A stretch of 64,000 nt of DNA from an uncultured Eubacteriales bacterium (lineage in GTDB: Bacteria > Bacillota > Clostridia > Lachnospirales > Lachnospiraceae), in contig ONKC01000003.1 in assembly GCA_900318295.1 (NCBI GenBank), forward strand, positions 10,155 through 74,154, read 5' to 3'. Below, piece by piece: positions 8,692 to 37,917 of the stretch. Numbering within the stretch: position 1 is the stretch's first letter; every line of letters starts with the position of its first letter. The position numbers and the translations under genes were made by a program. Below the pieces are notes generated by a model. That model did not search any database. It had not been told where the DNA came from and saw only the letters and a program-made list of their open reading frames with translations.

Positions 8692-8721
8692 GAGTCTACG
8701 CCATCTTTTTAAAAAAATCAC

Positions 8722-8750
8722 TTGACACTCACCTATACATGTGATATGAT
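8722..8750 (+). promoter_or_regulatory. SigA promoter of purF
   Basis: TTGACA-N17-(TG)TATGAT. Confidence 0.85.
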
Positions 8751-8760
8751 ACATAGCGTT

Positions 8761-8806: not shown

Positions 8807-8816
8807 GGAGGTATCT

Positions 8817-10310: not shown

Positions 10311-10349
10311 AGAGATTCTTGATAATATTTAACAAGTGAAAGAAAATAG

Positions 10350-10378
10350 TTGACATTATTATTCATTTGTGTTATGAT
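10350..10378 (+). promoter_or_regulatory. SigA promoter of amt-glnK
   Basis: TTGACA-N17-(TG)TATGAT. Confidence 0.85.
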
Positions 10379-10388
10379 ACGTTTTGTT

Positions 10389-10434
10389 GAGGCAAGGGCG
10401 TCTCGGTTTTGTAACCGGGACGCCCTTTGTTTTT
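10389..10434 (+). ncRNA. Leader: ANTAR-type hairpin overlapping an intrinsic terminator (copy 2)
   Basis: GAGGC-AAGGGC-GTCTC. Terminator AAGGGCGTCTCGGTT-ttgt-AACCGGGACGCCCTT followed by TGTTTTT. Confidence 0.8.
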
Positions 10435-10462
10435 ATAAAAAATAGAAATGGAGGATAGGTTT

Positions 10463-12229: not shown

Positions 12230-12260
12230 TATGCGCATATGTTTGCCCAACATATGATAT

Positions 12261-12298
12261 AAAAAAAGGGAGCACCGACCAAAACGGTGTTCCCTTTT
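12261..12298. terminator. Bidirectional intrinsic terminator
   Basis: AAAGGGAGCACCG-accaaaa-CGGTGTTCCCTTT flanked by A- and T-runs. Confidence 0.85.
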
Positions 12299-12313
12299 GA
12301 CACACTACTCATA

Positions 12314-14462: not shown

Positions 14463-14504
14463 TGCATATAACCTCCTTGGCTAATGTGTATTACCATCCT
14501 GCTG

Positions 14505-14533
14505 ATTATACTAAAAATTAGGAATTTCGTCAA
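14505..14533 (-). promoter_or_regulatory. SigA promoter of the ABC operon
   Basis: Minus strand TTGACG-N17-TATAAT, back-to-back with the radical SAM promoter. Confidence 0.75.
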
Positions 14534-14543
14534 ATTTTTTTGC

Positions 14544-14572
14544 TTGACAAGATAATCTTAATGATGTATAAA
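14544..14572 (+). promoter_or_regulatory. SigA promoter of the radical SAM gene
   Basis: TTGACA-N17-TATAAA. Confidence 0.7.
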
Positions 14573-14673
14573 GTGAGATAAAGTGGGTGGAGATGTCGAA
14601 GATATGCCTATGCGTAGGGCATATCAGTATAGTCAGACATCGCAAAAAGCAATAATAGGAGGGAGATAAAACT

Positions 14674-15768: not shown

Positions 15769-15800
15769 ATAAAAGTATAAATGCTTTCTGAAATTTTTTC

Positions 15801-15829
15801 TTGACAAGTTTCTAAAAATATGATATGAT
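15801..15829 (+). promoter_or_regulatory. SigA promoter of asnB-glnN-gltBD
   Basis: TTGACA-N17-(TG)TATGAT. Confidence 0.85.
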
Positions 15830-15839
15830 GCGTTGCAGT

Positions 15840-15888
15840 GAGGCAAAGGCGTCTCAGAGGAAACTCTGGGACGTCTTTGTCTTTCTTT
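15840..15888 (+). ncRNA. Leader: ANTAR-type hairpin overlapping an intrinsic terminator (copy 3)
   Basis: GAGGC-AAAGGC-GTCTC. Terminator AAAGGCGTCTCAGAG-gaaa-CTCTGGGACGTCTTT followed by GTCTTTCTTT. Confidence 0.8.
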
Positions 15889-15907
15889 GGTTTAGGAGGA
15901 CAAAAAA

Positions 15908-19872: not shown

Positions 19873-22800
19873 ATGGATAATAATAGTGATAATAATAACG
19901 TTAAAAATAATCCGCTTGAAAATGAAAACTGGTGGAAAAATGAACACGATGCCTGCGGTATCGGAGCTGTTATAAATATAGACGGAAAAAAGGATCATAA
20001 AGTCCTTGATGATGCTTTAAGTATCGTAGAAAAGCTCGAGCACCGCGCAGGTAAGGATGCCACGGGTAAGGTCGGAGACGGTGTAGGAATTCTGACTCAG
20101 ATATCGCATCCATTTTTCAAAAAACAAGGTAAAAAGCTTGGTATAGATCTGGGCGATGAGGGCGACTACGGTGTCGGAATGTTTTTCTTTCCGCAGGATG
20201 CCCTGAAAAGAAAGTTCGCGATGAGGATGCTCGAGGTTATCGCTGAAAAAGAAGGAGTTGAGTTCCTCGGCTGGAGAGATGTTGAAACTCATCCGGAGCT
20301 TCTCGGTCAGGTCGCTGTCGACTGCATGCCCTATATTAGCCAGTGCTTTTTGAAAAGACCTGATGATGTTGAAAAGGGAATAGATTTTGACAGAAAGCTA
20401 TACTGCCTTAGAAAGGAGTATGAACAGAGCTCCGAGGATACATATATCTGCTCACTTTCCTCTCGTACCATCGTGTACAAGGGAATGTTTTTAGTTGGAC
20501 AGCTCAGAAACTTTTATGAGGACTTACTTTCTAAGGATTATAAAACGGCGATCGCTTTGGTACACTCCAGATTTTCTACCAATACGACGCCATCCTGGCA
20601 GCGTGCTCATCCGTATCGAATGATCGCGCACAATGGTGAGATCAACACCATCCGCGGTAACGCCGATCGTATGCTTGCCAGAGAAGAGACCATGAAGACC
20701 GATCTAAGTAAGGTCTATCCTGTTATCTCATCATCGGGTTCGGATTCTGCCATGCTCGATAACACCTTGGAATTTTTATACATGAACGGTATGGAGCTTC
20801 CGCTGGCGATGATGATCACCGTGCCCGAGCCCTGGAAGCATGATGATGCGATGGGCAAGGAGCGCAAGGATTTTTATCACTATTATGCGACAATGATGGA
20901 GCCGTGGGACGGCCCTGCAGCTATCCTTTTTACGGACGGAGAACTTTTTGGAGCAACTTTGGATCGTAACGGACTCAGACCGTCACGCTACTACGTCACA
21001 AAGGATAAAAGACTCATCCTCTCATCGGAGGTGGGTGTTCTTGATATACCCGAGGATACGATCGAAAAGAAATCGAGATTGTCACCGGGAAGGATGCTTG
21101 TAGTCGATACAAAGCAGGGAAGGATCCTCTCGGATGCGGAGTGCAAGGAGCGTTATGCGACTGCACATCCGTACGGCGAGTGGCTTGATCGTCACCTCCT
21201 TCACTTAGATCATTTAAATATCCCAAATAAAAAAATACCGACACACGAGCAGAGTGTGAGAGACCGACTTTACAAGGTATTTGGTTATGCATATGAGGAT
21301 ATAAAAAATCAGATACTTCCGATGGCGACTGATGGAGTAGAGCCGACGGTATCGATGGGTGCGGATGTCCCGCTCGCGATGCTTTCATCACATCATCAGC
21401 CACTGTTTTGCTACTTTAAGCAACTGTTTGCACAGGTAACAAATCCGCCGATCGACTCACTCAGAGAAAAGATCGTCACCGACACGACCGTATATATCGG
21501 TTCGGACGGAGATCTGTTGCAGGCAAAGGGTGAAAACTGTCGAGTGCTCGAGGTAAATAATCCGATACTTACCGGAGTCGATCTGATGAAGATCGAAGCG
21601 CTCGATACGGAGGGGTTCCATACGGCTAAGGTATCACTTTTATACTATAAAAATACCCCGATAGAAAGAGCTTTGGATCAGTTAAATATTGCCGTAGACA
21701 GAGCGATTTCAGAGGGTGCAAATATCATTACTTTATCGGATAGAGGTGTAGATGAAAACCACATGCCTATCCCGTCGCTGCTCGCAGTATCATCTGTTGA
21801 ACAGCACCTGGTAAGAACGAAAAAAAGAACCGCAGTTTCACTCATACTTGAAAGCGGTGAGCCCAGAGATGTGCATCAGATAGCATGTCTTTTGGGTTAT
21901 GGTGTGCGTGCGATACATCCTTATCTTGCACATGAATGTATCGCTGAGATGATCGATATCGGAATGCTTGATAAGGATTATCACACCGCGATCGCTGACT
22001 ATAATAAAGCACTTTTAAACGGTGTTGTAAAGATCGCTGCAAAGATGGGAATATCCACTCTGCAGTCATATCAGTCTGCACGTATTTTTGAAGCAATCGG
22101 TCTTTCAAAGGAGGTTATCGATACCTACTTTACAGGTACAGTCAGCAGAGCAGGCGGTATCGGTATCAAAGAGATCGGTGAGGATGTCGAGCTTCGTCAT
22201 AATAAAGCTTTTGATCCTCTGGGACTTCCTGTGGATGCTACGCTTGATTCGATCGGATTCCACGGCCTTCGAAGCGGAGATGATAAAGAGGACCATATGT
22301 ATACTCCGAAGACCATAGTGACTCTCCAGCGTGCGGTAAGAGAGGGTGACTATGAACTCTTTAAAGAGTATGCAAAAATGGTGGATGATGAGAACAGGCC
22401 GCATACCCTGCGCGCATTGCTTGAGTTTATCCCGGCGAAAAAGCCGGTTCCTTTGGATGAAGTGGAGAGCGAGGATGATATAGTAAAACGTTTCCAGACA
22501 GGGGCCATGTCATACGGTTCTTTGTCAAAGGAGGCGCACGAGACATTGGCGACCGCCATGAACAGACTTGGCGGAAGGTCAAACACGGGAGAGGGTGGTG
22601 AGGCCACCGACCGCTTCGGTACCGAGAGAAACTCTGCAGTAAAGCAGGTTGCGTCGGGACGTTTTGGTGTGACGAGCGGTTATCTTCTCAGTGCGAAGGA
22701 GATCCAGATAAAAATGGCCCAGGGCGCGAAGCCCGGTGAGGGTGGACACCTTCCCGGAAAGAATGTATATCCCTGGGTGGCAAAGACCAGATTTTCGACA

Positions 22801-24417
22801 CCTGGTGTGGCGCTGATAAGCCCTCCGCCGCATCATGATATCTACTCTATCGAGGATCTGGCACAGCTTATATATGATCTGAAAAATGCAAATGATAAGG
22901 CACGTATTTCCGTAAAACTTGTATCAGAAGCAGGAGTCGGAACCATCGCATCAGGTGTTGCAAAGGCCGGTGCGGGAGTCATCCTGATCTCGGGATACGA
23001 CGGAGGTACCGGAGCCGCGCCGTCATCGTCAGTGCACCATGCAGGACTTCCGTGGGAGCTCGGTCTTTCCGAGGCTCACAGATGTCTGGTAGAGAACGGG
23101 CTTCGTTCACATGTAGTGCTTGAGACTGACGGAAAGCTTATGACAGGACGTGACGTCGCGATAGCAGCACTTCTCGGAGCTGAGGAGTTTGGCTTTGCTA
23201 CAGCACCATTAGTATGTATGGGATGTATGATGATGAGGGTGTGCTCAAAGGATACATGTCCTGTTGGTATAGCAACTCAGAATGAGGAACTCAGAAAGCG
23301 TTTTGCCGGTAAGCCTGAGCACGTGATGAACTTCATGAGATTTGTCGCAAGACAGCTCAGGGAGATCATGAGTGAGATGGGCTTTAGAACGCTCGAGGAG
23401 ATGGTAGGACGTACCGACAGACTGAGTACCAGACAGGAAGGAAGAAAGGACAGAGCGGCACTTGCTGATCTGACCAGGATCCTAAACAGCGATGTATCCG
23501 AGGAGCATGAGCTGAACACTCACTTTGTAGAGAAGGATGTGTATGATTTCGGTCTCGAAAAAACACTTGATTCGAAGGTCCTTATCCCGGCTTATAAAAA
23601 GAAAAAGGGCAAGGGCACTCAGACTATCGAGGTGGATATCTCAAGTACGGACAGAAGCTTCGGAACACTTCTCGGATCACGCATTACAGCCGATCATGAC
23701 GGAAGTCTCAAGGATGATTCGGTGAAGGTCATAGCACACGGCGGAGCAGGTCAGTCCTTCGGAGCATTTATCCCGAAGGGTCTTACGATCAAACTCTACG
23801 GAGATGCAAACGACGGATTCGGTAAAGGACTTTCGGGAGGAAAGCTTATCGTCAGACCTCCGGAGAATGCAGCATATAAAGCACATGAAAATATAATCAT
23901 CGGTAATGTGGCTCTGTACGGAGCGACGGCCGGAAAGGCTTATATCTGCGGTGTGGCAGGTGAGCGTTTCTGCGTGAGAAACTCAGGTGCAACAGCAGTA
24001 GCTGAAGGGTGCGGAGATCACGGACTCGAGTATATGACCGGAGGACGTGCGGTGATACTCGGTATGACCGGTAAAAACTTCGCGGCCGGAATGAGCGGAG
24101 GAATAGCCTATGTTCTTGATAAAGAGCATACTCTTTATCTGAGAATGAATAAGGATATGGCTTCACTTTCAGAGGTTACTGCGGAGTATGATATCGGAGA
24201 ATTAAAGAGCATACTTACCGACTATGTAAAGGAGACGGGATCGGAATACGGAAAAGAGATACTTGATAATTTTGAGGAGTATCTGCCCGACTTTAAAAAG
24301 ATCGTTCCGAATGATTATCAGAGGATGCTCACTGCGATATCGCATTTCGAGGAGCAGGGCGTCGATTCGGAGACGGCCATTTATGATGCATTCAGAGAAG
24401 TTACAGGTTCTGACTGA
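19873..24417 (+). CDS. gltB: Glutamate synthase large subunit
   Basis: Propeptide then 'HDACGIG', 'HSRFSTNT', 'AHNGEINT', 'KMAQGAKPGEGG', 3Fe-4S 'CMMMRVCSKDTC', GXGXG C-terminal domain. Confidence 0.96.
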   Translation: MDNNSDNNNVKNNPLENENWWKNEHDACGIGAVINIDGKKDHKVLDDALSIVEKLEHRAGKDATGKVGDGVGILTQISHPFFKKQGKKLGIDLGDEGDYGVGMFFFPQDALKRKFAMRMLEVIAEKEGVEFLGWRDVETHPELLGQVAVDCMPYISQCFLKRPDDVEKGIDFDRKLYCLRKEYEQSSEDTYICSLSSRTIVYKGMFLVGQLRNFYEDLLSKDYKTAIALVHSRFSTNTTPSWQRAHPYRMIAHNGEINTIRGNADRMLAREETMKTDLSKVYPVISSSGSDSAMLDNTLEFLYMNGMELPLAMMITVPEPWKHDDAMGKERKDFYHYYATMMEPWDGPAAILFTDGELFGATLDRNGLRPSRYYVTKDKRLILSSEVGVLDIPEDTIEKKSRLSPGRMLVVDTKQGRILSDAECKERYATAHPYGEWLDRHLLHLDHLNIPNKKIPTHEQSVRDRLYKVFGYAYEDIKNQILPMATDGVEPTVSMGADVPLAMLSSHHQPLFCYFKQLFAQVTNPPIDSLREKIVTDTTVYIGSDGDLLQAKGENCRVLEVNNPILTGVDLMKIEALDTEGFHTAKVSLLYYKNTPIERALDQLNIAVDRAISEGANIITLSDRGVDENHMPIPSLLAVSSVEQHLVRTKKRTAVSLILESGEPRDVHQIACLLGYGVRAIHPYLAHECIAEMIDIGMLDKDYHTAIADYNKALLNGVVKIAAKMGISTLQSYQSARIFEAIGLSKEVIDTYFTGTVSRAGGIGIKEIGEDVELRHNKAFDPLGLPVDATLDSIGFHGLRSGDDKEDHMYTPKTIVTLQRAVREGDYELFKEYAKMVDDENRPHTLRALLEFIPAKKPVPLDEVESEDDIVKRFQTGAMSYGSLSKEAHETLATAMNRLGGRSNTGEGGEATDRFGTERNSAVKQVASGRFGVTSGYLLSAKEIQIKMAQGAKPGEGGHLPGKNVYPWVAKTRFSTPGVALISPPPHHDIYSIEDLAQLIYDLKNANDKARISVKLVSEAGVGTIASGVAKAGAGVILISGYDGGTGAAPSSSVHHAGLPWELGLSEAHRCLVENGLRSHVVLETDGKLMTGRDVAIAALLGAEEFGFATAPLVCMGCMMMRVCSKDTCPVGIATQNEELRKRFAGKPEHVMNFMRFVARQLREIMSEMGFRTLEEMVGRTDRLSTRQEGRKDRAALADLTRILNSDVSEEHELNTHFVEKDVYDFGLEKTLDSKVLIPAYKKKKGKGTQTIEVDISSTDRSFGTLLGSRITADHDGSLKDDSVKVIAHGGAGQSFGAFIPKGLTIKLYGDANDGFGKGLSGGKLIVRPPENAAYKAHENIIIGNVALYGATAGKAYICGVAGERFCVRNSGATAVAEGCGDHGLEYMTGGRAVILGMTGKNFAAGMSGGIAYVLDKEHTLYLRMNKDMASLSEVTAEYDIGELKSILTDYVKETGSEYGKEILDNFEEYLPDFKKIVPNDYQRMLTAISHFEEQGVDSETAIYDAFREVTGSD

Positions 24418-24539: not shown

Positions 24540-24589
24540 ATATACTGAGATTGAAAACTATATATGTACTTTTTTATAGGAGTGATAAC

Positions 24590-26056
24590 ATGGGTAAGAT
24601 AGGTGGTTTCCTGGAATACGACAGGAAGGAAAATAAAAGAATTGCACCGGGGGAGAGAATCAAAAATTTTCTCGAATTTTATGATATAAATGATGTCAAT
24701 GAGAGACGTTGTCAGGCGGCCAGATGTATGGACTGCGGAGTACCGTTTTGTCAATCGGCGATGAGCCTGGGCGGAATGGTGGTCGGATGTCCTTTGCACA
24801 ATCTGATCCCTGAGTGGAATGACGCTATTTTTAAAGAACAGGATAAGCATGCGCTTTCGAGACTTTTAAAGACGAATCCTTTTCCGGAGTTTACCGGCAG
24901 AGTTTGCCCGGCTCTCTGTGAGAAGGCTTGTATCAACGGTGAGCACGGTGAGAGTGTGACCGTACATGACAATGAAAAATATATCATTGAAACTGCTTAT
25001 AAAAATGGCTGGATGGAGCCGCGTATACCTAAGCACAGAAGCGGCAAAAAGGTTGCTGTGATCGGCAGCGGTCCGTCCGGACTCAGCACTGCCGATACGC
25101 TGAATAAAAGAGGTCATCAGGTCACGGTTTTTGAAAGAGAGGATCGTATTGGCGGACTTTTGATGTACGGTATCCCGAACATGAAACTCGATAAAAAGGT
25201 GATCTCGCGCAGAAAAAAACTCATGGAAGCAGAGGGGATTATTTTTAAGTGCGGGATAGATGTAGGTCGTGATATAAAGATCAATCAGCTTAAAAAAGAG
25301 TTCGATGCGATCGTGATGTGCTGCGGTGCCAAAAAGCCGAGACCTCTAAACGCAAAAGGAATAGAGGGTGTCAAGGGCGTAAGGTTTGCTGTGGATTTTT
25401 TGACCGATGTAACTAAAAACCTTTTAGCAGATGCACTTGATAAATCCGTAGCACCTTCCGTTAAAAATAAAAACGTGGTAGTAGTTGGCGGAGGTGATAC
25501 AGGAAATGATTGTATAGGAACCTCGATAAGACTCGGAGCAAAGAGTGTCACCGCTCTCGAGATGATGCCGAAGCCACCTGTGGAGCGTGCCGCAAATAAT
25601 CCCTGGCCGCAGTGGCCGAAGGTGTTAAAGACAGATTACGGCCATGAGGAGGCGATAGAAAAATACGGAGAGGATCCGCGTATTTTTGAAACTACCGTAA
25701 AAGAAGTGATTGCTGAAAAGGGTGTCATCAAAAAGATAGTTACGGTAAAGGTTAAGTTTGATAAAGGTCAGCTTAAAGAGGTCAAAGGTTCGGAGCAGAC
25801 TATCCCGTGTGATCTGCTTCTCATCGCTGCCGGATTTCTCGGAGCGCAGGAGTATCTTCCGAAGGCTGCAAAGGTGGAGCTTGCACCGAGAGGAAATGTT
25901 GCCACCGAACAAGACAGCTACAAAACGAACGTAGAGGGTATTTTTACGGCAGGAGACATGCACAGAGGACAGTCACTCGTGGTGTGGGCGATAGCCGAAG
26001 GAAAGGCCTGCGCAAGGGAGGTAGATGATTATTTGATGGGATATACAAATTTATAG
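24590..26056 (+). CDS. gltD: Glutamate synthase small subunit
   Basis: 'ARCMDCGVPFC', 'GCPLHN', 'VIGSGPSG', 'VVGGGDTGNDC', 'GDMHRGQSLVVWAIAEG'. ATG 24590 follows GGAGTGA. Confidence 0.95.
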   Translation: MGKIGGFLEYDRKENKRIAPGERIKNFLEFYDINDVNERRCQAARCMDCGVPFCQSAMSLGGMVVGCPLHNLIPEWNDAIFKEQDKHALSRLLKTNPFPEFTGRVCPALCEKACINGEHGESVTVHDNEKYIIETAYKNGWMEPRIPKHRSGKKVAVIGSGPSGLSTADTLNKRGHQVTVFEREDRIGGLLMYGIPNMKLDKKVISRRKKLMEAEGIIFKCGIDVGRDIKINQLKKEFDAIVMCCGAKKPRPLNAKGIEGVKGVRFAVDFLTDVTKNLLADALDKSVAPSVKNKNVVVVGGGDTGNDCIGTSIRLGAKSVTALEMMPKPPVERAANNPWPQWPKVLKTDYGHEEAIEKYGEDPRIFETTVKEVIAEKGVIKKIVTVKVKFDKGQLKEVKGSEQTIPCDLLLIAAGFLGAQEYLPKAAKVELAPRGNVATEQDSYKTNVEGIFTAGDMHRGQSLVVWAIAEGKACAREVDDYLMGYTNL

Positions 26057-26084
26057 TGACATATGTCATCAAGTGGTGTATAAT
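26056..26084 (+). promoter_or_regulatory. Promoter of carAB with a palindrome TGACATATGTCA over the -35
   Basis: GTGACA-N17-TATAAT. Perfect 12-bp palindrome at 26057-26068. Confidence 0.6.
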
Positions 26085-26142: not shown

Positions 26143-27165
26143 ATGAACGAACAAAAAAGAAGACTGATCCTCGAAGACGGGACCGTTTTTATCGGTGAGG
26201 GCTTCGGGGCAGAGTCTGATGCGGTGTGTGAGCTTGTCTTCAACACGTCGATGGTCGGTTATCAGGAGATAGTTTCCGATCCGTCCTATACAGATCAGGC
26301 GGTGGTGATGAGCTATCCTTTGATCGGTAACTACGGGATCACGGATGAGGATTTCGAGAGCAGGATCGTAGCTCCGACCGCATTTATCGTCAGGGATTAT
26401 AATGATCAGCCGTCGAACTTCAGGTACACGAAAACCCTGTCGGAGCTGCTCGCGGATAACGGCATCCCCGGTGTTACAGGGATTGATACGAGGAAGCTGG
26501 TAAGACATATCAGGGATCACGGATCTCAGAGGGTACTTATCACCTCGGATAATATAAGTCCGGAGGAAGGACAAAAAAGGATAGCAGATACGCCTGTACC
26601 ACACGATTCGGTCAGTCGTGTAAGCTGTAAAAAAAGATGGTATGCAAGAACAGCAAATCCGAGATTTAATGTTGTCGCCATCGACTGCGGTATCAAATTA
26701 AATATCGTCCGTATGCTGAACAAATACGGCTGCAACGTAGTTGTAGTACCGTATGACACGGGAAGTGAGAACATCCTTCAGATGCATCCGGACGGTGTTT
26801 TTGTGTCCAACGGTCCCGGTGATCCGGCTGATGTGAGTGTGGTAACAAAGACGATACAAAACCTCATCGGCAAGCTTCCGATATTTGGAATATGCTTAGG
26901 TCATCAGCTTATCGCAAGAGCATACGGAGCGGATACATACAAGTTAAAATTCGGTCACAGGGGAGTAGATGAAAAGACGATTAAAAATGATAAAATAAAG
27001 GTGTCACATATGAACCTTTTGGATAATACAGTCGAAGGTATCGTGTGTCCTTCCGATAAGGTGATGTCGGTGCAGTATCATCCCGAGAGCGCACCGGGAC
27101 CGAAGGACAGCGCGTATCTTTTTGATCAGTTTGTAGCGTTAATGGAGGAAGAAAAAAATGCCTAA
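26143..27165 (+). CDS. carA: Carbamoyl-phosphate synthase small subunit with an in-frame internal deletion
   Basis: 'LEDGTVF', '[10 protein letters not shown]', 'SNGPGDP', 'GICLGHQ', 'QYHPES'. The usual 'NHPV...SQNH' segment is missing after GHRG. Confidence 0.9.
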
Positions 27166-30100
27166 AAGAAATGATATAAAAAAGGTATTGGTGATAGGAT
27201 CGGGACCTATCGTTATCGGCCAGGCAGCGGAGTTTGATTATGCAGGTACGCAGGCTTGTCTCGCTTTGAAAGAAGAGGGGTATGAGGTCATCCTGGCAAA
27301 CTCCAATCCCGCTACCATCATGACAGATACCACCATAGCGGATAAGGTATATATGGAGCCGCTCACTCTGGAGTTCATGGCCAGGATCTGTCGTTATGAA
27401 AGACCGGATGCCATCGTACCCGGTATCGGAGGCCAGACGGGACTGAACTTAGCTTTGCAGCTCAGCGAAAAAGGAGTTCTCGATGAGTGTGAGATAGAGC
27501 TTTTGGGAACCGATAAAGAGAGTATCCAAAGAGCAGAGGACAGAGAGCTTTTCAAAGAACTTTGCGAAGAGATCGGAGAACCTGTCATCCCTTCGCAGAT
27601 CACTTATTCTATCGAAGAGGGATTGAAGGCAGCAGAGGAGATCGGGTATCCGGTTATCCTTCGTCCGGCGTTCACCCTCGGCGGAACGGGTGGTGGATTT
27701 GCCTACGATAAAGAAGAGATGAAGATAAAGATGGAGCATGCCTTGGAGGCTTCACCCGTACATCAGGTACTCGTAGAAAAAAGTATACGAGGATACAAAG
27801 AGATCGAGTATGAGGTTATCCGTGATGCAAATGACACCGCGATAGTAGTCTGCAACATGGAGAACTTGGACCCTGTCGGGATCCATACCGGAGACTCGAT
27901 AGTAGTCGCACCTTCACAGACTCTGACCAACAGAGAATATCATATGCTCAGAGACTCGGCTCTAAAGATCATCCGTGCATTAAAAGTAGAGGGCGGATGT
28001 AATGTCCAGTATGCGCTTGATCCAGAGAGCTTCCGTTACTATGTGATCGAGGTTAATCCGCGTGTGTCAAGATCATCAGCACTCGCATCAAAGGCGAGCG
28101 GATATCCGATCGCGAGAGTGTCGGCAAAGATCGCAGTCGGTATGCGACTTGATGAGATACAGCTTGCAAACACACCTGCATGCTTTGAGCCGTCACTTGA
28201 CTATGTAGTTACAAAAATGCCACGATTCCCGTTTGATAAGTTTACTACCGCATCAAACACGCTTTCCACCCAGATGAAGGCGACAGGTGAGGTCATGAGT
28301 GTCGGACGCACGATGGAGGAGAGCTTACTTAAAGCGATAAGGTCTTTGGAGGACGGTAAAAATCATATCCATCTCGAGAAGTTTGACTCAAAAAATATGT
28401 CTGTCGACGAGCTTTTAGATTATATAAAAGAAGGAACCGATGACAGGATATATGCGATCGCTCAGCTGATGTGGATGGGTGTCGATCCGTCTGTTATTAA
28501 TCAGCGAACAATGATCGATATGTTCTTCCTCGACAAGATAAAAAATATAGTATTATTTGAGAAAGAAATAGAGGGTGCACACCTCACAAGAGAGCTTGTA
28601 ATAAAAGCAAAAAGGATCGGTTTTTCAGACTCTTATATCGCCGAGCTGACTCAGAAAACAGAGGATGAAATATGGAAGTTCAGACGTGAAGAAAAGATCA
28701 GTCCGGTATATAAAATGATCGATACCTGCGCAAGCGAGTTTGAAAGCTATGTACCTTATTTTTACTCTACTTATGAGGAAGAAAATGAGAGTATAGTAAG
28801 TGATAAAGAAAAGATAATTGTACTTGGAAGCGGACCGATAAGGATCGGTCAGGGAGTCGAGTTTGATTACTCAACAGTCCATGCGATAAGAGCGATAAGA
28901 GAGCTCGGTTACGAAGCGATTGTTATTAATAATAACCCGGAGACTGTATCCACGGATTATACCACCGCTGACAAGCTTTACTTCGAGCCTTTGACCATCG
29001 AGGATATCATGAATATCATCGATCTCGAAAAGCCGAAGGGAGTGATAGTAACACTCGGCGGACAGACTGCCGTGAACCTTGCCGAGCCTCTTACAAGAAG
29101 AGGTGTAAAGATCATCGGTACAGACAGTGAGGCTATCGATAAGGCAGAGGACAGAGATTCATTTGAGTCTGTGATAAGAGAGCTTGATATCCCGCATCCG
29201 ACAGGTGAGGCGGTAACAAGTATAGAGGCCGGTGTAGAGGCAGCAAAGAGGATCGGTTATCCGGTACTTGTCCGTCCGAGCTTCGTACTCGGAGGACGTG
29301 CGATGGAGATCGTCGCAAATGAAGAGATGCTTCGTACTTATCTTAAAAATGCGGTTGAAGTAGATGTAGATAAGCCTGTTTTGGTAGACCGTTATATCGT
29401 CGGAAAAGAAGTCGAGGTCGATGCGATCTGTGATGGTGAGGATGTATTTATCCCGGGTATCATGGAGCTTGTGGAAAGGACCGGTGTCCACTCCGGAGAT
29501 TCGACAAGTGTTTATCCGCCGTTCTCTATCTCGGAAAAAGTAAAAGACACAATCCGAGAGTACACCACGAGGATCGGAAAAGGTATCGGTATAGTTGGTC
29601 TTTTCAACATCCAGTATATAGTTGACGGAGAAGAGGTTTACATCATAGAAGTAAATCCCAGAGCGAGCCGAAGCGTGCCATTTTTATCAAAGAGCACGGG
29701 CTTTTCTCTGGTAGGTATCGCTACGAAGGCGATGCTCGGAGTGTCAATAAGAGATCAGGGTATAGAAAGCATGTATCCGGCGGAGAAGCAGTATCACTTT
29801 GTGAAGGCACCTGCGTTCTCATTTGAAAAGCTGGCCGGGATGGATGCGTATCTCTCACCTGAGATGAAGTCGACGGGTGAGGCGATAGGATATGATTCGC
29901 AGCTTAATCGAGCATTTTATAAAGCGCTTCAGGCTTCCGGCATAAAAATGAAGGAGTACGGAACTGTCGTAGTAACACTCGCCGATGAGGACAAGGAGGA
30001 AGCACTGCCGCTGGTAGAGAGGTTCTATCAGCTTGGCTTCAATATCGAAGCGACACCGGGTACCGCGACATTTTTAAAGAATCACGGAGTCAGAACGCGT

Positions 30101-30337
30101 ATGAGAGGAAAGCTTTCGGAGGGAAGCGACGAGATCCTCAGGTCGATACGCGCAGGCTATGTCAGCTACATCCTGAATACCAGGGCGATACTTTCTGGCG
30201 TGCACTATGAGGACGGTGTGGCGATCAGAAAGTGTGCGGTCGCAAACGGAGTGACGATGTTTACATCGCTCGATACTGTAAGAATTCTTTTGGATGTTTT
30301 AGAGGAGATATCACCGCGCATCAGAGCGCTGGAGTAG
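27158..30337 (+). CDS. carB: Carbamoyl-phosphate synthase large subunit
   Basis: '[17 protein letters not shown]', two ATP-grasp halves ('[10 protein letters not shown]', 'EVNPRASRS'), C-terminal MGS domain. Overlaps the carA stop. Confidence 0.96.
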
Positions 30338-30418
30338 GTGAATCAGAGTGATACAGTGTATGGCAAAAGCTGCGTGCAGTCTTGATCCGGGCTGTGATGC
30401 ATGGAAAGGAAGGAAACT

Positions 30419-31588
30419 ATGACCTATACTAAAGAAGAGATAATGCAATACATGGAGGAGGAAGACGTTAAGTTTATACGTCTTATGTTCCGTGATGCAT
30501 TCGGCGTGCAGAAAAATATCTCGATAATGCCGACCGAGTTAAAAAAAGCTTTCGAGGGTGGCATAGGAATCAATGCGAGGAGAATCCCGGGCTTCGAAAG
30601 GAGTGAGACCGCGGAGCTCTATCTGGTGCCGGATCCCGAGACCATCACTGTGCTTCCGTGGAGACCGGAGAGCGGAAGGGTCGTCAGGATGTACTGCGAC
30701 GTGTGCGGTCCTGATCGTACACCTCAGAAAAATGACACGCGTGTGATGCTTAAAAATGCGATCGAGCATGCTAAAAAAGAGGGTATAGAGTTTAAGTTCG
30801 GATCAAAGTCTGAGTTCTATCTTTTCAAGCTTGATGACGAGGGAAACCGCACCGAGATCCCTTATGATGATGCCGGATATATGGATATCGCACCTCTCGA
30901 TATGGGTGAAAATATCCGTCGTGAGATATGTCTTACTATCGAGAGGATGGGGCTTCGTCCGGAGCGCTCGCACCATGAGCAGGGACCTGGTCAGAATGAG
31001 ATAGATTTCCATCACGGCGAGCCGCTGACGGCAGCGGATCAGATGTCTACTTTTATGATGGCGGTGCAGACTATCGCCGGGAGGAACGGATTGTATGCTG
31101 ACTTCTCACCGGTCCCTATAAAGGATATGCCCGGTAACGGTTATCATATAAACATGTACGCTTCGGATGCACAGGGTAATGATGTATGTCGATATGCGGC
31201 AGCGGGAATACTTGATAAGATTAGAGAGATCACTCTGTTTTTAAATCCGAGTGAAAACTCCTATCGCAGGTTCGGGACCAACACAGCGCCGGATCGTATA
31301 AACTGGACGGCAGAGGGCGAGACCTCACTTATGCATGTGTCTGAAAAACTCGGAGGAATAAGAGCTGAGCTTCGTTCGCCGGATGCTCTTTCTAATCCTT
31401 ATCTGGCTTACTCGATCCTTATCGAAGCGGGCCTGTATGGAATTAAAAATAAGCTCGAGCTGCCGGAAGAAACAGGTGATGAAAATCTCCTTCCGCAGTC
31501 ACTAAAAGAAGCGAGAGAAATCGCGGCAAAAAGTGAGTTTATAAAGAGTATTGTTTCTGAAGATATTTTTGATGAATATATGGGTTGA
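30419..31588 (+). CDS. Glutamine synthetase type I-fold protein, probably catalytically inactive
   Basis: Colinear with GSI ('VKFIRL', 'HHEQGPGQNEIDF', 'RAELRSPDALSNPYL'), but 'GPEPEF' reads 'GSKSEF', 'GYEAP' reads 'NTAP', 'NRSPLIRIP' reads 'GETSLMHVS'. The C-terminal tail is absent. Confidence 0.85.
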   Translation: MTYTKEEIMQYMEEEDVKFIRLMFRDAFGVQKNISIMPTELKKAFEGGIGINARRIPGFERSETAELYLVPDPETITVLPWRPESGRVVRMYCDVCGPDRTPQKNDTRVMLKNAIEHAKKEGIEFKFGSKSEFYLFKLDDEGNRTEIPYDDAGYMDIAPLDMGENIRREICLTIERMGLRPERSHHEQGPGQNEIDFHHGEPLTAADQMSTFMMAVQTIAGRNGLYADFSPVPIKDMPGNGYHINMYASDAQGNDVCRYAAAGILDKIREITLFLNPSENSYRRFGTNTAPDRINWTAEGETSLMHVSEKLGGIRAELRSPDALSNPYLAYSILIEAGLYGIKNKLELPEETGDENLLPQSLKEAREIAAKSEFIKSIVSEDIFDEYMG

Positions 31589-31594
31589 TAGTAT

Positions 31595-32179
31595 ATGGCT
31601 GATGGAAGCGTAAGACAACACGATATACTGATCGTCTCGTCAAACGAGAAGTTCAGTGACAGTGTGACGCGGGCTCTCTCGGACGGGAGATACCGCGATG
31701 TTGACGTGCGCAAAAGTGCTTCCGCAGCCCGCAGAGAACTCCTCGAAAAAAGCTATGATGTAGCTATGATAAACATGCCTCTTTCGGATGAGCCGGGAGT
31801 GGATCTCGCGATAGATATCGCATCGACTTATCCCACCGGAGTGCTGATAATAGCTTCCTCGGAGATCAGTGAAGACGTCGCGGAAAAGGTAACAGACGAC
31901 GGAATAATAGTGATCGCCAAGCCCGCTTCCGCACGCATCGTAAAGCGTGCTGTCAGGGTTTTATGTGCCCTCCTCGATAAGCTGAAAAAATCCGAAAAAA
32001 AAGTCCTCACTCTGGAGGAAAAGATGGAAGAGATCCGCATCGTAAATCGTGCGAAATGGAAGCTTATAGATGAGAAAAAAATGGGCGAAGATGAAGCCCA
32101 TCGCTACATCGGGAAGCTGGCGATGGATAAGTGCATCTCAAAAGGGGATGCTGCGAGAGAAATATTAGGAGGGATCTAA
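31595..32179 (+). CDS. ANTAR-domain antiterminator with a pseudo-receiver domain (NitR/EutV-like architecture)
   Basis: C-terminal ANTAR 'IVNRAKWKLI..KMGEDEAHRYIGKLAMDKCISKGDAAREIL'. Receiver has 'IVSS' in place of 'IVDD' and 'INMP' in place of 'D.MP'. Confidence 0.9.
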   Translation: MADGSVRQHDILIVSSNEKFSDSVTRALSDGRYRDVDVRKSASAARRELLEKSYDVAMINMPLSDEPGVDLAIDIASTYPTGVLIIASSEISEDVAEKVTDDGIIVIAKPASARIVKRAVRVLCALLDKLKKSEKKVLTLEEKMEEIRIVNRAKWKLIDEKKMGEDEAHRYIGKLAMDKCISKGDAAREILGGI

Positions 32180-32198
32180 AAGATCCCTCCCCTTTTTT
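32168..32198 (+). terminator. Intrinsic terminator ending the nitrogen cluster
   Basis: GGAGGGATCT-aaa-AGATCCCTCC plus T6, overlapping the stop codon. Confidence 0.85.
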
Positions 32199-32274: not shown

Positions 32275-32303
32275 TTGACAAAACCGCCTATTTGTGGTAT
32301 ATT
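32275..32303 (+). promoter_or_regulatory. SigA promoter of trpB2
   Basis: TTGACA-N17-TATATT. Confidence 0.7.
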
Positions 32304-32375
32304 TCCTTACATATTTATATGGTGTCACGGATGCCAGGAAAAATATTGAAGGGAAAATGATTGGAGGACAGTGAA

Positions 32376-33740
32376 ATGAGTGAAATACCTTACAAAATCT
32401 ATCTCGAAGAAAGTGAGATGCCAAAAGAGTGGTATAACGTACGTGCCGATATGAAAAATAAACCGGCACCGCTTCTTAACCCGGGCACGGGTCAGCCGCT
32501 TAATGCTGAGGAGCTCGGCGCGGTATTCTGCGATGAGCTGGTAGCTCAGGAGCTTGATAATGATACAGCATTTATCGAGATACCACAGGAGATCAGAGAT
32601 TTCTACAAGATGTATCGTCCGTCACCTTTGGTGCGTGCGTACTGTCTCGAGAAAAAGCTCGGCACTCCGGCAAAGATCTACTATAAGTTTGAGGGTAATA
32701 ATACAAGCGGTTCACATAAGTTAAACTCAGCTATCGCGCAGGCATACTATGCGAAGAAGCAGGGACTTAAGGGTGTGACCACAGAGACCGGAGCAGGCCA
32801 GTGGGGTACGGCACTTTCGATGGCATGTGCTTATCTTGATCTCGATTGTAAGGTTTACATGGTTAAGGTTTCATATGAGCAGAAGCCTTTTAGAAGAGAG
32901 GTTATGCGCACATATGGCGCGACAGTAACACCGTCACCGTCAGAGACGACAGAGGTTGGTAAAAAGATCCTCGCTGAGCACCCGGGTACGACAGGAAGTC
33001 TTGGATGTGCGATCTCAGAGGCTGTCGAGGTGGCAGGAAGAGATCCGGGATACAGATATGTGCTCGGTAGTGTACTTAACCAGGTGCTTTTGCATCAGTC
33101 AGTCATCGGTCTGGAGACCAAGGCTGCTCTTGATAAATACGGAATCAAACCGGACATCATCATCGGATGTGCAGGAGGCGGATCAAACCTCGGCGGACTG
33201 ATCTCCCCATTCATGGGAGAGAAGCTTCGCGGGGAGGCTGACTACCGCATCATCGCAGTAGAGCCGGCATCATGCCCGAGCTTCACACGCGGTACATATG
33301 CATATGACTTCTGCGATACAGGTATGATCTGTCCGCTTGCAAAAATGTATACACTGGGAAGTAGCTTCATCCCGAGTGCAAACCATGCCGGAGGACTTCG
33401 CTTCCACGGCATGAGCCCGACACTTTCACAGCTTTATCATGACGGATACATGGAGGCAACAAGTGTAGAGCAGACAGCAGTATTTGAGGCCGCTGAGCAG
33501 TTTGCAAGAGTCGAAGGAATCCTTCCTGCACCGGAGAGTTCACATGCTATCCGCGCTGCTATCGACGAGGCGCTCAAGTGCAAGGAGACCGGCGAGGAAA
33601 AGACCATCGTATTTGGTCTGACCGGAACAGGTTACTTCGATATGGTTGCTTATGAGAAGTTCAATAACGGTGAAATGAGTGATACAATTCCGACTGATGA
33701 GGAGATCGCAGCGAGCATCGCGAAGCTCCCGAAGGTCTGA
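32376..33740 (+). CDS. trpB: Stand-alone tryptophan synthase beta-like enzyme (TrpB2)
   Basis: PLP Lys motif 'SGSHKLNSA', 'TETGAGQWG', 'GGGSNLGG', 'HAGGLRFHG', 'PAPESSHA'. Long N-terminus typical of TrpB2. ATG 32376 follows GGAGG. Confidence 0.9.
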   Translation: MSEIPYKIYLEESEMPKEWYNVRADMKNKPAPLLNPGTGQPLNAEELGAVFCDELVAQELDNDTAFIEIPQEIRDFYKMYRPSPLVRAYCLEKKLGTPAKIYYKFEGNNTSGSHKLNSAIAQAYYAKKQGLKGVTTETGAGQWGTALSMACAYLDLDCKVYMVKVSYEQKPFRREVMRTYGATVTPSPSETTEVGKKILAEHPGTTGSLGCAISEAVEVAGRDPGYRYVLGSVLNQVLLHQSVIGLETKAALDKYGIKPDIIIGCAGGGSNLGGLISPFMGEKLRGEADYRIIAVEPASCPSFTRGTYAYDFCDTGMICPLAKMYTLGSSFIPSANHAGGLRFHGMSPTLSQLYHDGYMEATSVEQTAVFEAAEQFARVEGILPAPESSHAIRAAIDEALKCKETGEEKTIVFGLTGTGYFDMVAYEKFNNGEMSDTIPTDEEIAASIAKLPKV

Positions 33741-35631: not shown

Positions 35632-36150
35632 ATGGAAGAATCAACATTAAAAAAACGATGCATAAGCCTTTTTGTTGAGAACGAGATCGGTGTGCTCGCG
35701 TATATATCGGGACTTTTTTCAGGCAAGGGTTATAACCTTGATTCACTCACAGTAGGTACGACTCTTGATCCGACGATCTCGCGTATGACCATCACTCTTA
35801 CAAGTGATGATATGACCTTTGAGCAGATCAAAAAACAGCTCAACAGAAGTGTTCCCGTGATCAGGGTCGTAGACTTCGCCGGCGCGGATATTTTTATGAA
35901 AGAGCTGATGTATGTCAAGGTCATGGGATGTACCGATGAAGAGATGAAAAAGATCGCAAAGATCGCGGAAAAATATGATACGACTATCATTGATTGTGTA
36001 TCTGATTCCATGCTTATGGAGTGTTTGGATACCGAAAAAGACAACGATGCTCTACTTGAAAAATTAAAGAAATATTTCAACGGACGTATGGAGATAGTTC
36101 GCGGCGGAAGCGTAGCGATCGAGGCGCTGCAAGCCAAAAAGGAGCAGTAA
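35632..36150 (+). CDS. ilvN: Acetolactate synthase small (regulatory) subunit
   Basis: ACT domain 'VENEIGVLAYISGLFSGKGYNLDSLTVG', C-terminal 'EIVRGG'. Follows ilvB. Confidence 0.88.
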   Translation: MEESTLKKRCISLFVENEIGVLAYISGLFSGKGYNLDSLTVGTTLDPTISRMTITLTSDDMTFEQIKKQLNRSVPVIRVVDFAGADIFMKELMYVKVMGCTDEEMKKIAKIAEKYDTTIIDCVSDSMLMECLDTEKDNDALLEKLKKYFNGRMEIVRGGSVAIEALQAKKEQ

Positions 36151-37205
36151 TGTATCGTTTGTATGAGTGGACTGCGATAATGCTTTTGTGTCTGGCAGGG
36201 CTTGTCATGTCGGATAACTATGTTGTTCCTGTAGCTGTAGCCATAGGTCTGATCGCGGTGTCCACTGTAGTACATCTGCTCAGTAGGAGTATTTTTTCAG
36301 CTATTATTCTTTTTGTAGCCTGTGGAGTATGCGGATGGGTTCCGCTTGTGTTTTGCGGGTTGCCTGTGTTTATGTATGAAGCGATGCGGGAGGAAAGATG
36401 GTTTCTGGTCCTGCCATCGCTTCTTGTATTATTACATACGGATGCACTTGAGCCGGCGCAGTATATAGTTGCTTTGTCGGGCGCGGGAGTGTCAGTGCTT
36501 CTATACTATATGATGTCGAGGATCGAGGATTCCGTAGAAAAATACCACGTTCTGAGAGATGAGCTTGTAGAAAAAAATGCGATCCTGGAGAGTCAGAATC
36601 AAAGGCTTAAGGAGGCACAAAATAACGAAGTACATCTGGCTACGATGAAGGAGAGAAACCGCATCGCCAGAGAGATACATGACAATGTCGGACATATGCT
36701 TACGAGATCTCTTTTGCAGTCCGGTGCTCTTATGATAGCAAACAAGGATGAAAACCTGAAGGAGCCTTTGGAAGGATTAAATGCCACCCTGGATCAGGCG
36801 ATGACGAGCATACGTGAGAGTGTGCATGATCTGCATGATGAGTCGATAGATCTGCAAGCGGTGATCATCGAGAACTTAAAGACTGCCGAGCACAGGTTTA
36901 AGACCTCGTTTAGTTATGAGATAAAGGCCGGGCTTCCTACGTCGGTAAAACTATGTTTTGCCGGGATAGTAAAGGAAGCAGTATCAAATGCGGTAAAGCA
37001 TTCGAACGGTGATAAGATAGAGGTGACGGTCGGAGAAAAGCCGGGTGTATATGAGCTGATAATATCCGATAACGGCAAAGCCGGAGAGATAAGACAGACC
37101 GGGATCGGTCTGTCAAATATGCGCGATAGAGTCGGACAGCTGCAGGGACATATCGAGTTTATCACGGACAACGGTTTTGTTATCAGAGCAGGCATACCAA
37201 GGTAA
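36150..37205 (+). CDS. Membrane sensor histidine kinase (HisKA_3, NarL-type partner)
   Basis: 'ERNRIAREIHDNVGH', 'EAVSNAVKHS', 'DNG', 'GIGLSNMRDRV'. TM-rich N-terminus. TAATG overlap with ilvN. Confidence 0.9.
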   Translation: MYRLYEWTAIMLLCLAGLVMSDNYVVPVAVAIGLIAVSTVVHLLSRSIFSAIILFVACGVCGWVPLVFCGLPVFMYEAMREERWFLVLPSLLVLLHTDALEPAQYIVALSGAGVSVLLYYMMSRIEDSVEKYHVLRDELVEKNAILESQNQRLKEAQNNEVHLATMKERNRIAREIHDNVGHMLTRSLLQSGALMIANKDENLKEPLEGLNATLDQAMTSIRESVHDLHDESIDLQAVIIENLKTAEHRFKTSFSYEIKAGLPTSVKLCFAGIVKEAVSNAVKHSNGDKIEVTVGEKPGVYELIISDNGKAGEIRQTGIGLSNMRDRVGQLQGHIEFITDNGFVIRAGIPR

Positions 37206-37222
37206 AAAAATGGACGTGCCAT

Positions 37223-37301
37223 GCGCTCGCGCGGTCGGAGTATATATTCCTCGCTCGTCCTTATAAAGGACTCCTCGGAATATATCTCCTGCCGCGAGCG
37301 C
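37223..37301. repeat. 79-bp imperfect palindrome sitting on the 5' end of the response regulator gene
   Basis: GCGCTCGCG..GGAGTATATATTCC..GTCCTT-at-AAGGAC..GGAATATATCTCC..CGCGAGCGC. Confidence 0.8.
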
Positions 37302-37323
37302 GGGATGTAGGGACGATAAACTG

Positions 37324-37917
37324 GTGGCGCTGTCACTTAAGACGATACTTGAGAGTACGCCGGATATTGAGGTCGTGGCGATGGGCAGCTCAGGTGATGA
37401 GGCGATAGGTCTTTACAAGGAGCATAGGCCCGATGTCATGCTGATGGATATCCGGATGGAGGGTATGACTGGACTTGAAGCGGGGGAGATAATCCTCAAA
37501 GATTCACCTGAAGCTAGGCTTTTATACCTGACTACTTTTTCTGATGATGAGTATATCATCAAGGCTCTTGGTATGGGTGCAAAGGGATATATACTTAAGC
37601 AGGATTATGAGGGAATAGCTCCTGCTCTTACAGCTATTATGAACGGTCAGTCTGTCTTTGGAGACAGCGTCAGGGACAAGCTTCCAAACCTTATGAGAGA
37701 TAAAGATGAATTTGATTTTGCGGCCTATGATATAAGCGATAAGGAAAGAGAAATACTTGAGGCGGTCGCAACCGGAAAGAACAATAAAGAGATCGCTGAG
37801 CAACTGTATTTAAGTGAAGGTACTGTAAGAAACTATATAAGCTCTCTTCTTGATAAGCTAGAGCTCAGAGACAGGACTCAATTAGCGGTATTTTATTATA
37901 CTGAAATAAAAGGATAA
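37324..37917 (+). CDS. NarL/LuxR-family response regulator, N-terminally truncated (possible pseudogene)
   Basis: 'MDIRMEG' phospho-Asp, 'LTTF', 'GYILK', HTH 'NKEIAEQLYLSEGTVRNYIS'. The beta1 strand and its Met are missing, and GAC-GAT (DD) lies upstream of the GTG. Confidence 0.75.
   Translation: MALSLKTILESTPDIEVVAMGSSGDEAIGLYKEHRPDVMLMDIRMEGMTGLEAGEIILKDSPEARLLYLTTFSDDEYIIKALGMGAKGYILKQDYEGIAPALTAIMNGQSVFGDSVRDKLPNLMRDKDEFDFAAYDISDKEREILEAVATGKNNKEIAEQLYLSEGTVRNYISSLLDKLELRDRTQLAVFYYTEIKG

Follow-up and report, generated by a model that had tools for sequence, protein, structure and literature searches.

Why should a nitrogen-assimilation operon that already encodes a type III glutamine synthetase (GSIII) carry a second gene for a protein of the glutamine synthetase (GS) fold in which catalytic residues are replaced? 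The question is raised by a gene, referred to here as GS-like, in a 64,000-nucleotide stretch of contig ONKC01000003.1 from an uncultured Eubacteriales bacterium of the Lachnospiraceae (the window is this whole stretch). It is followed directly by a gene for an ANTAR-domain antiterminator. The analysis indicates that the GS-like protein, which has the fold of type I-alpha GS (GSI-alpha), is probably non-catalytic and senses a ligand as the partner of the ANTAR antiterminator, whose gene begins 6 nt further on. This reading draws on the residues lost and kept in the protein, on its constant pairing with an ANTAR protein whose receiver domain has lost its phospho-acceptor, and on RNA leaders with ANTAR-type hexaloops in front of nitrogen genes.

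The GS-like protein keeps the fold and has replaced catalytic residues

Residues were numbered on Bacillus subtilis GlnA, using a sequence identical to that of PDB 4s0r and 7tfc, in a MAFFT alignment with 120 homologues. In this alignment the GS-like protein carries the substitutions D53N, E132K, N240P, E304T, R316E and R321H and retains E134, E189, E196, G241, H245, R298, E333 and R335, exactly as an earlier note, made from the letters of this DNA alone, had listed them. The same picture was obtained when the protein was aligned to Methanosarcina mazei GS. Five of the six metal ligands (E132, E134, E189, E196, H245 and E333) are kept, E132 being changed to Lys. Asp53, the flap Glu304, Arg316 and Arg321 are replaced by Asn, Thr, Glu and His, respectively, and these replacements are conserved within the clade. 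Since the ammonium-deprotonating Asp, the flap Glu, both phosphate-binding Arg residues and one n2 metal ligand are all affected, loss of catalysis in the window protein is strongly suggested, and with it the claim of the earlier note that ammonium-site and phosphoryl-transfer functions are gone. One substitution had to be dropped from that argument. N240P is also found in intact full-length GSI-alpha relatives with complete catalytic signatures, and it was rejected as a mark of inactivation.

The protein is also shortened. It ends at about B. subtilis position 415, with counterparts for just 4 of the 29 residues of positions 416-444. The missing segment is the C-terminal helix that ties the two hexameric rings of the dodecamer together; the absence of this inter-ring tail had been read correctly before. 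Two internal deletions lie at about positions 250-262 and 372-392. An AlphaFold2 (AF2) model built with 56 family sequences (predicted local distance difference test, pLDDT, 85.6; predicted template-modelling score, pTM, 0.89) superposes on M. mazei GS 8s59 with a template-modelling (TM) score of 0.92 at 39% identity. This confident model and its superposition point to an intact GS fold in the window protein.

Family models place the protein in the GS superfamily and outside its named enzyme families. Both GS domains are present by Pfam (Gln-synt_N, 64 bits; Gln-synt_C, 215 bits). The NCBIfam GlnA equivalog TIGR00653 gives 260.1 bits, below its cutoff of 429.15, a shortfall that adds to the case for lost function. 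The models for type III GS (174 bits against a cutoff of 470) and gamma-glutamylputrescine synthetase (147.8 against 650) are likewise missed. The closest solved structures are GSI-alpha enzymes, that of M. mazei first (E ~1e-85), then those of Listeria monocytogenes and B. subtilis. The expectation that annotation pipelines would call the gene glnA was nearly right, homologues being labelled 'glutamine synthetase' or 'glutamine synthetase family protein'.

The longest listed reading frame runs from 30401 to 31588, and its in-frame ATG at 30401 has no ribosome-binding site. ATG 30419 is the likely start, because the ribosome-binding site AAGGAAGG lies in front of it and because it gives the length of the homologues (389-390 aa in 83 of the 120 closest database homologues). 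From this start the frame is uninterrupted, as had been stated.

The GS-like gene is under purifying selection

Ratios of nonsynonymous to synonymous substitution (dN/dS) were computed pairwise by the NG86 method on close pairs only, distant pairs being saturated (dS undefined or >2). For the GS-like gene the values were 0.034 (dS 0.28), 0.028 (dS 0.89), 0.023 and 0.045. They are matched by those for carB (0.02-0.03), carA (~0.06), gltD (0.03-0.06) and the ANTAR gene (0.03-0.085), and no relaxation was seen on unsaturated pairs. Thus, purifying selection acts on the gene with the same strength as on its housekeeping neighbours, and a pseudogene is excluded. This bears out the view that the gene is selected rather than decaying. 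Invariance, defined as the same residue in at least 118 of 120 homologues, extends to 152 of the 389 positions, and the reading frame is intact at 78 loci from several orders.

Contigs from rumen metatranscriptomes with 95-99% identity cover parts of the operon, and two of them cross the junction between the GS-like and ANTAR genes (31559-31792). They fit co-transcription weakly, as DNA carry-over or cross-mapping could also produce them. Most of the metatranscriptome depth comes from conserved GSIII segments (word depth up to ~860) and is uninformative on termination or read-through.

The GS-like gene is paired with an ANTAR pseudo-receiver gene

In the ANTAR protein, the phospho-acceptor site of the receiver domain is Asn (Asn60) in 76 of 76 orthologues. 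The two Asp residues of the acidic pocket are replaced, the first by Ser (Ser15 here; Ser in 76/76) and the second by Ala or Ser, and Lys109-Pro110 is kept. The best PDB match is Rv1626 (1s8n; E 6e-9). Given the Asn at the acceptor site in every orthologue, the domain is an obligate pseudo-receiver that cannot be phosphorylated, as in AmiR.

The ANTAR gene lies directly 3' of the GS-like gene in 77 of 80 loci, and the remaining three end at a contig edge; adjacency and common orientation of the two genes thus hold at all 77 loci that are complete here. The pair occurs in Lachnospiraceae, Oscillospiraceae, Christensenellales, Agathobaculum, Massiliimalia, Zongyangia and metagenome-assembled genomes (MAGs) of Planctomycetota. 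Its other neighbours vary in order and strand and are drawn from a fixed set (type III GS, amtB-glnK, gltB/gltD, asnB, purF and carAB), the commonest arrangement being small gltB, GS-like, ANTAR. The organism is a rumen member of the Lachnospiraceae with 97-98% protein identity to Lachnospiraceae bacterium P6B14 and to a related MAG, and the sequencing runs that match the window are bovine and sheep gut metagenomes. Three loci from MAGs labelled Thermoguttaceae or Planctomycetales (L047, L056 and L058) carry the same gltB-GS-like-ANTAR cassette, two of them (L056 and L058) together with a leader of the type labelled variant B. These planctomycete-labelled cassettes reflect either horizontal transfer from Clostridia or mis-binning.

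Hexaloop attenuators precede nitrogen genes

Leaders of one layout precede the purF-like gene, amtB-glnK and the asnB operon in the window, and no further ones were found there. Each consists of a near-consensus extended -10 promoter followed after ~10 nt by the hairpin GAGGC-AA(A/G)GGC-GUCUC, a GC-rich terminator and a U-tract. The loop and 3' arm of the hexaloop hairpin form the 5' arm of the overlapping terminator, which makes the two structures mutually exclusive. The full leaders fold as terminators, with energies of -26.3, -30.9 and -35.1 kcal/mol (z -5.8 to -7.3), and the hexaloop hairpin alone reaches ~-6 kcal/mol; in the asnB leader the values are -35.1 (z -7.3) for the terminator against -6.2 kcal/mol for the hairpin. 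Since the terminator is so much more stable, termination would be the default, and a protein holding the 5' hairpin would prevent it.

The same design was searched for in 1.29 Mb of related loci, as a promoter with a perfect 6-bp stem and an A..G.. hexaloop, with reversed sequences as controls. The search returned 79 sites, compared with 1 in the controls. They lie in front of small gltB (28), GSIII (15), the GS-like operon (9), amtB-glnK (4), purF (2), ANTAR genes (2) and asnB (1), with 18 before genes outside the reference set. Two stem variants occur, AAAGGC/GUCUUU and AUGAGC/GUUCAU, with compensatory changes at three consecutive pairs, and double-sided changes are seen at 4 of the 6 stem pairs overall. 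The closing pairs are C-G in 75/75 and G.U in 72/75, and the loop AANGGC is near invariant. Perfect pairing was a selection criterion, which makes the 100% pairing of the sites circular, a caveat that touches neither the covariation nor the control count. The A in the first and the G in the fourth place of this loop are the recognition signature of ANTAR domains (PMC3369931; PMC12591593). No Rfam family matched the leaders, either in the whole window at gathering thresholds or in 8600-16000 by E-value, where only chance-level matches appeared.

Seven loci (L016, L021, L026, L028, L030, L033 and L078) have two complete hexaloop-plus-terminator attenuators in tandem, ~75 nt apart, before GSIII; in L016 they lie on the - strand at 6346 and 6268. 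At these loci a divergent variant-B leader ~130 nt away drives an operon of glutamate synthase (GOGAT), GS-like and ANTAR genes.

Catalytic residues are lost by degrees across the family

Seventy-eight homologues from the 80 genome loci were placed, with full-length GSI-alpha representatives, on a neighbour-joining tree carrying per-sequence signatures. In every ANTAR-linked protein the flap Glu304 is replaced and the C-terminal helix is absent, the truncation falling at the same point throughout. Position 304 is Lys or Arg in ~60 members (Oscillospirales, Christensenellales and similar groups) and Thr, Asn or Met in Lachnospiraceae. The Lachnospiraceae/Saccharofermentans clade alone has gone further and lost D53, S55, S249, R316 and R321 as well, and among close homologues (at least 64% identity) N53, P240, T304 and non-Arg residues at 316 and 321 dominate. 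The E132K change is limited to the closest relatives of the window protein (13 of 120 close homologues; 7 of 78 genome loci), Glu being kept at this position in 88 of the 120.

The library of representatives further holds dozens of diverged GSI-alpha-like cluster representatives of 350-440 aa with scrambled catalytic signatures, for the most divergent of which the alignments are unverified. Degenerate GS-fold proteins may thus be far more diverse than the ANTAR-linked clade. The search of representatives was topped by a protein of 4424 aa with 12 separate GS-like stretches (P0121); another of 2757 aa (P0152) has 6. These are either odd multi-GS polyproteins or artefacts of assembly or gene calling.

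A candidate signal: 2-oxoglutarate or glutamine

In M. mazei GlnA1, 2-oxoglutarate (2-OG) binds an allosteric site at the subunit interface formed by F24, R26, S38, R87, R172', R173' and S189' (PMC11957540). Six of these seven residues are identical in the window protein, S38 being replaced by Asn. F24, R26, R87, R172' and R173' are invariant in 79 of 79 ANTAR-linked proteins and S189' is present in 78, so that the site persists even where catalytic residues are gone. The amino-acid pocket is also kept in the window protein (R298, E134, E189, E196, G241, H245 and R335), the 2-OG site being the better conserved of the two. These residues suggest that the signal may be 2-OG at the inter-subunit site, or glutamine or glutamate in the amino-acid pocket, or both, with 2-OG slightly favoured over glutamine.

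In M. mazei, 2-OG drives assembly of the oligomer, and the C-terminal helices H14/H15 form the inter-ring contact (PMC11957540). The window protein, with the 2-OG site and without H15, could plausibly be a ligand-dependent assembly switch.

A proposed circuit and its alternatives

It is known that hexaloop targets of ANTAR proteins are concentrated in front of nitrogen genes and that ANTAR proteins with a pseudo-receiver are controlled by partner proteins (PMC3369931; PMC12591593). Since the receiver encoded in the window is a pseudo-receiver, the activity of the ANTAR protein would have to be set by a protein partner. In the circuit that we propose, the terminators would form by default and the nitrogen genes would be off. 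Free ANTAR protein would bind the nascent hexaloop hairpin and block the terminator, allowing read-through into purF, amtB-glnK and the operon asnB-GSIII-gltBD-carAB-GS-like-ANTAR. As this operon is itself among the proposed targets, the circuit would be autoregulatory. The GS-like protein would hold the ANTAR protein inactive at nitrogen sufficiency and release it at limitation, as AmiC does for AmiR and NasS for NasT. Glutamine would be made by the type III GS of the same cluster, which is presumably the working glutamine synthetase of the organism. The pairing with an obligate pseudo-receiver and the conserved hexaloop regulon before nitrogen genes together argue strongly for the sensor role that the earlier note had suggested from the protein alone. 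More tentatively, and as a possibility that we would hold somewhat less firmly than its opposite, a dedicated nitrogen receptor of the GS fold, no longer catalytic, may be present in many Clostridia of gut and rumen and in some MAGs of Planctomycetota. Binding of 2-OG or glutamine at a retained GS site would alter its assembly and free or trap the ANTAR protein, which would read the single 5'-terminal hexaloop hairpin and so antiterminate the whole ammonium-assimilation regulon.

Several observations weigh against the sensor reading. D53, S55, E132, R316 and R321 are kept in ~61 of the 78 ANTAR-linked homologues, in which only the flap Glu and the C-terminus are gone. The family may therefore have begun as a weakly active enzyme and may partly remain one, and adjacency to an ANTAR gene alone is thus no proof of a sensor role. 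The residues of the 2-OG site are largely conserved in full-length relatives too, which makes the site ancestral and not diagnostic of a sensor. Glutamine feedback of the B. subtilis type through Arg62 was rejected as a family feature, as this position is Asp or Gly in most members. On the RNA side, there is one hexaloop hairpin per terminator and not the canonical dual hairpin; no second (P1) hexaloop hairpin lies upstream of the conserved one in the window leaders, where the -10 box ~10 nt upstream leaves no room for it. Binding of these leaders by the window ANTAR protein is for this reason an extrapolation from the dual-hairpin case. The complex of GS-like and ANTAR proteins, the binding of a ligand and the lack of activity are all read from sequence, and the comparison with Clostridium thermocellum made below assumes that its type I GS, Clo1313_2031, belongs to the truncated, flap-less clade.

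The protein could instead still be an enzyme, either a weak GS or a gamma-glutamyl ligase for another amine, of the type of PuuA, GlnA3 or glutamate-methylamine ligase, whose ANTAR neighbour merely shares its nitrogen regulon. The retention of five of six metal ligands together with R298, R335, G241 and H245 fits such an enzyme, as does the nearly whole catalytic set of basal ANTAR-linked members. GS-like ligases whose ammonium site is altered are well documented, and the glnA upstream of nitR in Clostridium saccharobutylicum is reportedly a functional GS. In the window protein, however, replacements affect Asp53, the n2 ligand E132, the flap Glu and both phosphate-contacting Arg residues (R316 to Glu, R321 to His), whereas characterised gamma-glutamyl ligases keep the residues for ATP binding and phosphoryl transfer. 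The protein scores far below the NCBIfam cutoffs for GlnA (260/429), type III GS (174/470) and gamma-glutamylputrescine synthetase (148/650), a bona fide GSIII is already encoded in the same operon, and the 77/77 linkage to a pseudo-receiver that requires a partner would be left unexplained. We regard an enzyme as improbable. A similarly low likelihood is given to a regulatory pseudo-enzyme acting on another protein, such as GSIII, GOGAT or AmtB-GlnK, with the ANTAR protein controlled by GlnK/PII or by a direct small-molecule effector. GS-fold proteins do bind GlnK1, TnrA and GlnR (PDB 8tge, 4s0r and 7tf9, among the top structural matches), and a GlnK domain is encoded in the regulon. Yet it is the ANTAR gene that is universally juxtaposed with the GS-like gene (6 nt apart here; 77/77 complete loci), whereas GSIII, amtB, carAB and gltB come and go and switch strand among loci, and no other conserved candidate partner for the pseudo-receiver was seen next to the pair. 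A decaying or recently inactivated glnA paralogue without function, which the loss of several catalytic residues and the truncation might suggest, is effectively refuted: dN/dS is 0.02-0.05 at dS up to 0.9, the frame is preserved at 78 loci over several orders, 152 positions are invariant among close homologues, every member is truncated at the identical point, and, as a weak further sign, the metatranscriptome contigs cross the junction with the ANTAR gene. The ligand-sensing partner of the ANTAR antiterminator therefore remains the preferred reading of the GS-like protein.

Relation to known systems

The closest functional parallels are AmiC-AmiR of Pseudomonas aeruginosa and NasS-NasT of Paracoccus denitrificans, in which the gene for a non-phosphorylatable ANTAR protein likewise lies beside that for a soluble ligand-binding protein (PMC3369931, PMC12591593, PMC3795266). 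There the sensor sequesters the ANTAR protein, and the ligand state frees it to bind a leader hairpin and override the terminator; the genes regulated are again those of nitrogen metabolism. Their sensors, however, have the periplasmic-binding-protein fold and are not homologous to the window sensor candidate, whose GS fold makes the relation one of analogy and not of membership. They respond to a specific substrate, whereas the signal proposed here is central nitrogen status (2-OG and/or glutamine). The RNA target in the window is one 5'-terminal hexaloop hairpin, and its GS-like/ANTAR complex is putative. The leaders resemble the canonical ANTAR target (Ramesh et al. 2012) in the A1/G4 hexaloop, the conserved closing pairs, the mutual exclusion with a terminator and the position before nitrogen genes. 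They differ in having one hairpin per terminator, within a few nt of the predicted transcription start, and in the tandem attenuators of some genomes.

Adjacency of glnA and an ANTAR gene has long been known from C. saccharobutylicum NCP262, where, according to PMC6316151 citing Stutz 2007, the type I GS gene adjoins the ANTAR regulator gene nitR (glnR) beside GOGAT and antitermination was proposed as the control of GS/GOGAT. In C. thermocellum the gene for the ANTAR regulator (Clo1313_2030) adjoins that for a type I-alpha GS (Clo1313_2031), with GOGAT genes next to it (2032-2036; PMC4676874; PMC9888227), which in gene order matches the commonest small gltB/GS-like/ANTAR arrangement. Deletion of this glnA was reported to deregulate nitrogen metabolism in C. 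thermocellum: transcription responded as in nitrogen starvation although glutamine and 2-OG were raised, as PMC10967112 summarises the work of Rydzak 2017. Such a phenotype is expected from the loss of a negative regulator of an antiterminator. The literature treats both clostridial proteins as enzymes and describes neither a sensor role nor degeneration; their membership of the clade is putative, and the window protein differs in having lost phosphoryl-transfer and ammonium-site residues.

That a GSI-alpha fold can read nitrogen status by ligand binding and pass it on by direct protein contact is known from B. subtilis GS, which controls TnrA and GlnR (PDB 4s0r and 7tf9, both among the top structural matches). 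It is, however, a fully active dodecameric enzyme with MerR-type DNA-binding partners, while the partner in the window is RNA-binding, and Arg62, which it uses for feedback by glutamine, is not conserved in the window family. The best match to the window protein in both sequence and structure is the 2-OG-activated GSI-alpha enzyme M. mazei GlnA1 (E 1e-85, TM 0.92, 39%), with which it shares six of the seven 2-OG-contacting residues. GlnA1 is a competent enzyme that builds its dodecamer with H14/H15, whereas H15 and catalytic residues are missing here.

In the open-access literature no paper was found in which a truncated, catalytically degenerate GS clade is described as partnering a pseudo-receiver ANTAR protein, the subscription literature being outside the search. 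Glutamine goes unmentioned in a 2025 review of RNA-binding antiterminators (PMC12591593), as do pseudo-enzymes and ANTAR in a 2025 review of GS.

Nitrogen sensing is poorly understood in Lachnospiraceae, Oscillospiraceae and related anaerobes, the dominant bacteria of rumen and human colon. The architecture in the window presents a testable circuit of sensor, effector, RNA operator and regulon. If the proposal is correct, a GS-fold pseudo-enzyme would be added to the few protein sensors known to gate ANTAR antiterminators, and a previously undescribed master nitrogen switch would stand in the place of NtrBC, GlnR/TnrA or NtcA. The graded loss of residues would then record the path from a moonlighting enzyme to a pure sensor, and the clade, with active sites ranging from near-complete to heavily degenerate, is a natural series for studies of such transitions. 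The proposal also offers an explanation of why C. thermocellum, once its 'type I GS' was deleted, showed deregulated nitrogen metabolism and a higher ethanol yield. In gut metagenomes, hundreds of genes called 'glutamine synthetase' probably encode regulators, a systematic annotation error with consequences for metabolic models of rumen ammonia assimilation.

The nitrogen-assimilation cluster in the window

The features of the cluster are collected in Table 1. No strong terminator was found by terminator scans of the window between asnB and 32168 on the same strand, and the hairpin that follows probably ends the asnB-to-ANTAR operon.

Table 1. Positions of the GS-like and ANTAR genes, the RNA leaders and the surrounding nitrogen genes in the window
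Feature	Position	Strand	Remarks
Leader of purF-like gene	8722-8806	+	Promoter 8722-8750; hexaloop hairpin 8761-8776; terminator 8766-8797
purF-like glutamine amidophosphoribosyltransferase	8805-10310	+	Pfam GATase_6/7, Pribosyltran; proposed regulon member
Leader of amtB-glnK	10350-10436	+	Promoter 10350-10378; hexaloop hairpin 10389-10404 (loop AAGGGC); terminator 10394-10427
AmtB-GlnK fusion (ammonium transporter and PII)	10448-12229	+	One open reading frame (ORF) of 593 aa; Pfam; proposed regulon member
Leader of asnB operon	15801-15893	+	Promoter TTGACA-17-TATGAT 15801-15829; hairpin GAGGC-AAAGGC-GUCUC 15840-15855; terminator 15840-15883 and U-tract
asnB	15908-17608	+	Pfam
Type III glutamine synthetase	17684-19792	+	702 aa; GSIII_N, Gln-synt_C, Gln-synt_C-ter
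gltB	19873-24417	+	Pfam
gltD	24551-26056	+	Pfam
carA	26143-27165	+	Pfam
carB	27158-30337	+	Pfam
Ribosome-binding site AAGGAAGG	30406-30413	+	5-nt spacer to ATG 30419; read from sequence
GS-like protein	30419-31588	+	389 aa; fold of GSI-alpha with degenerate catalytic site and truncated C-terminus; proposed sensor of a ligand
ANTAR antiterminator with pseudo-receiver	31595-32179	+	194 aa; starts 6 nt after GS-like stop; Pfam ANTAR 51 bits, Response_reg 31 bits
Terminator-like hairpin	32168-32190	+ (also - strand, 32191-32167)	Terminator scan; overlaps 3' end of ANTAR ORF

A near-consensus promoter-like site (GTGACA-17-TATAAT) lies at 26056-26084, directly 5' of carA, and could let carAB-GS-like-ANTAR be expressed without the asnB leader. 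Downstream of the operon terminator and before ilvB/ilvN, 32361-33740 encodes a TrpB-like enzyme dependent on pyridoxal phosphate (NCBIfam PRK12391, 688 bits) with a promoter-like site of its own at 32275-32303. This gene also follows the ANTAR gene in two other loci (L001 and L002) and is nearby in several distant ones. Two signalling systems elsewhere in the window are unrelated to the GS-like/ANTAR pair: a seven-transmembrane hybrid histidine kinase with receiver and Hpt domains (2804-5662), and a HisKA_3 kinase with a LuxR-type response regulator (36150-37917).

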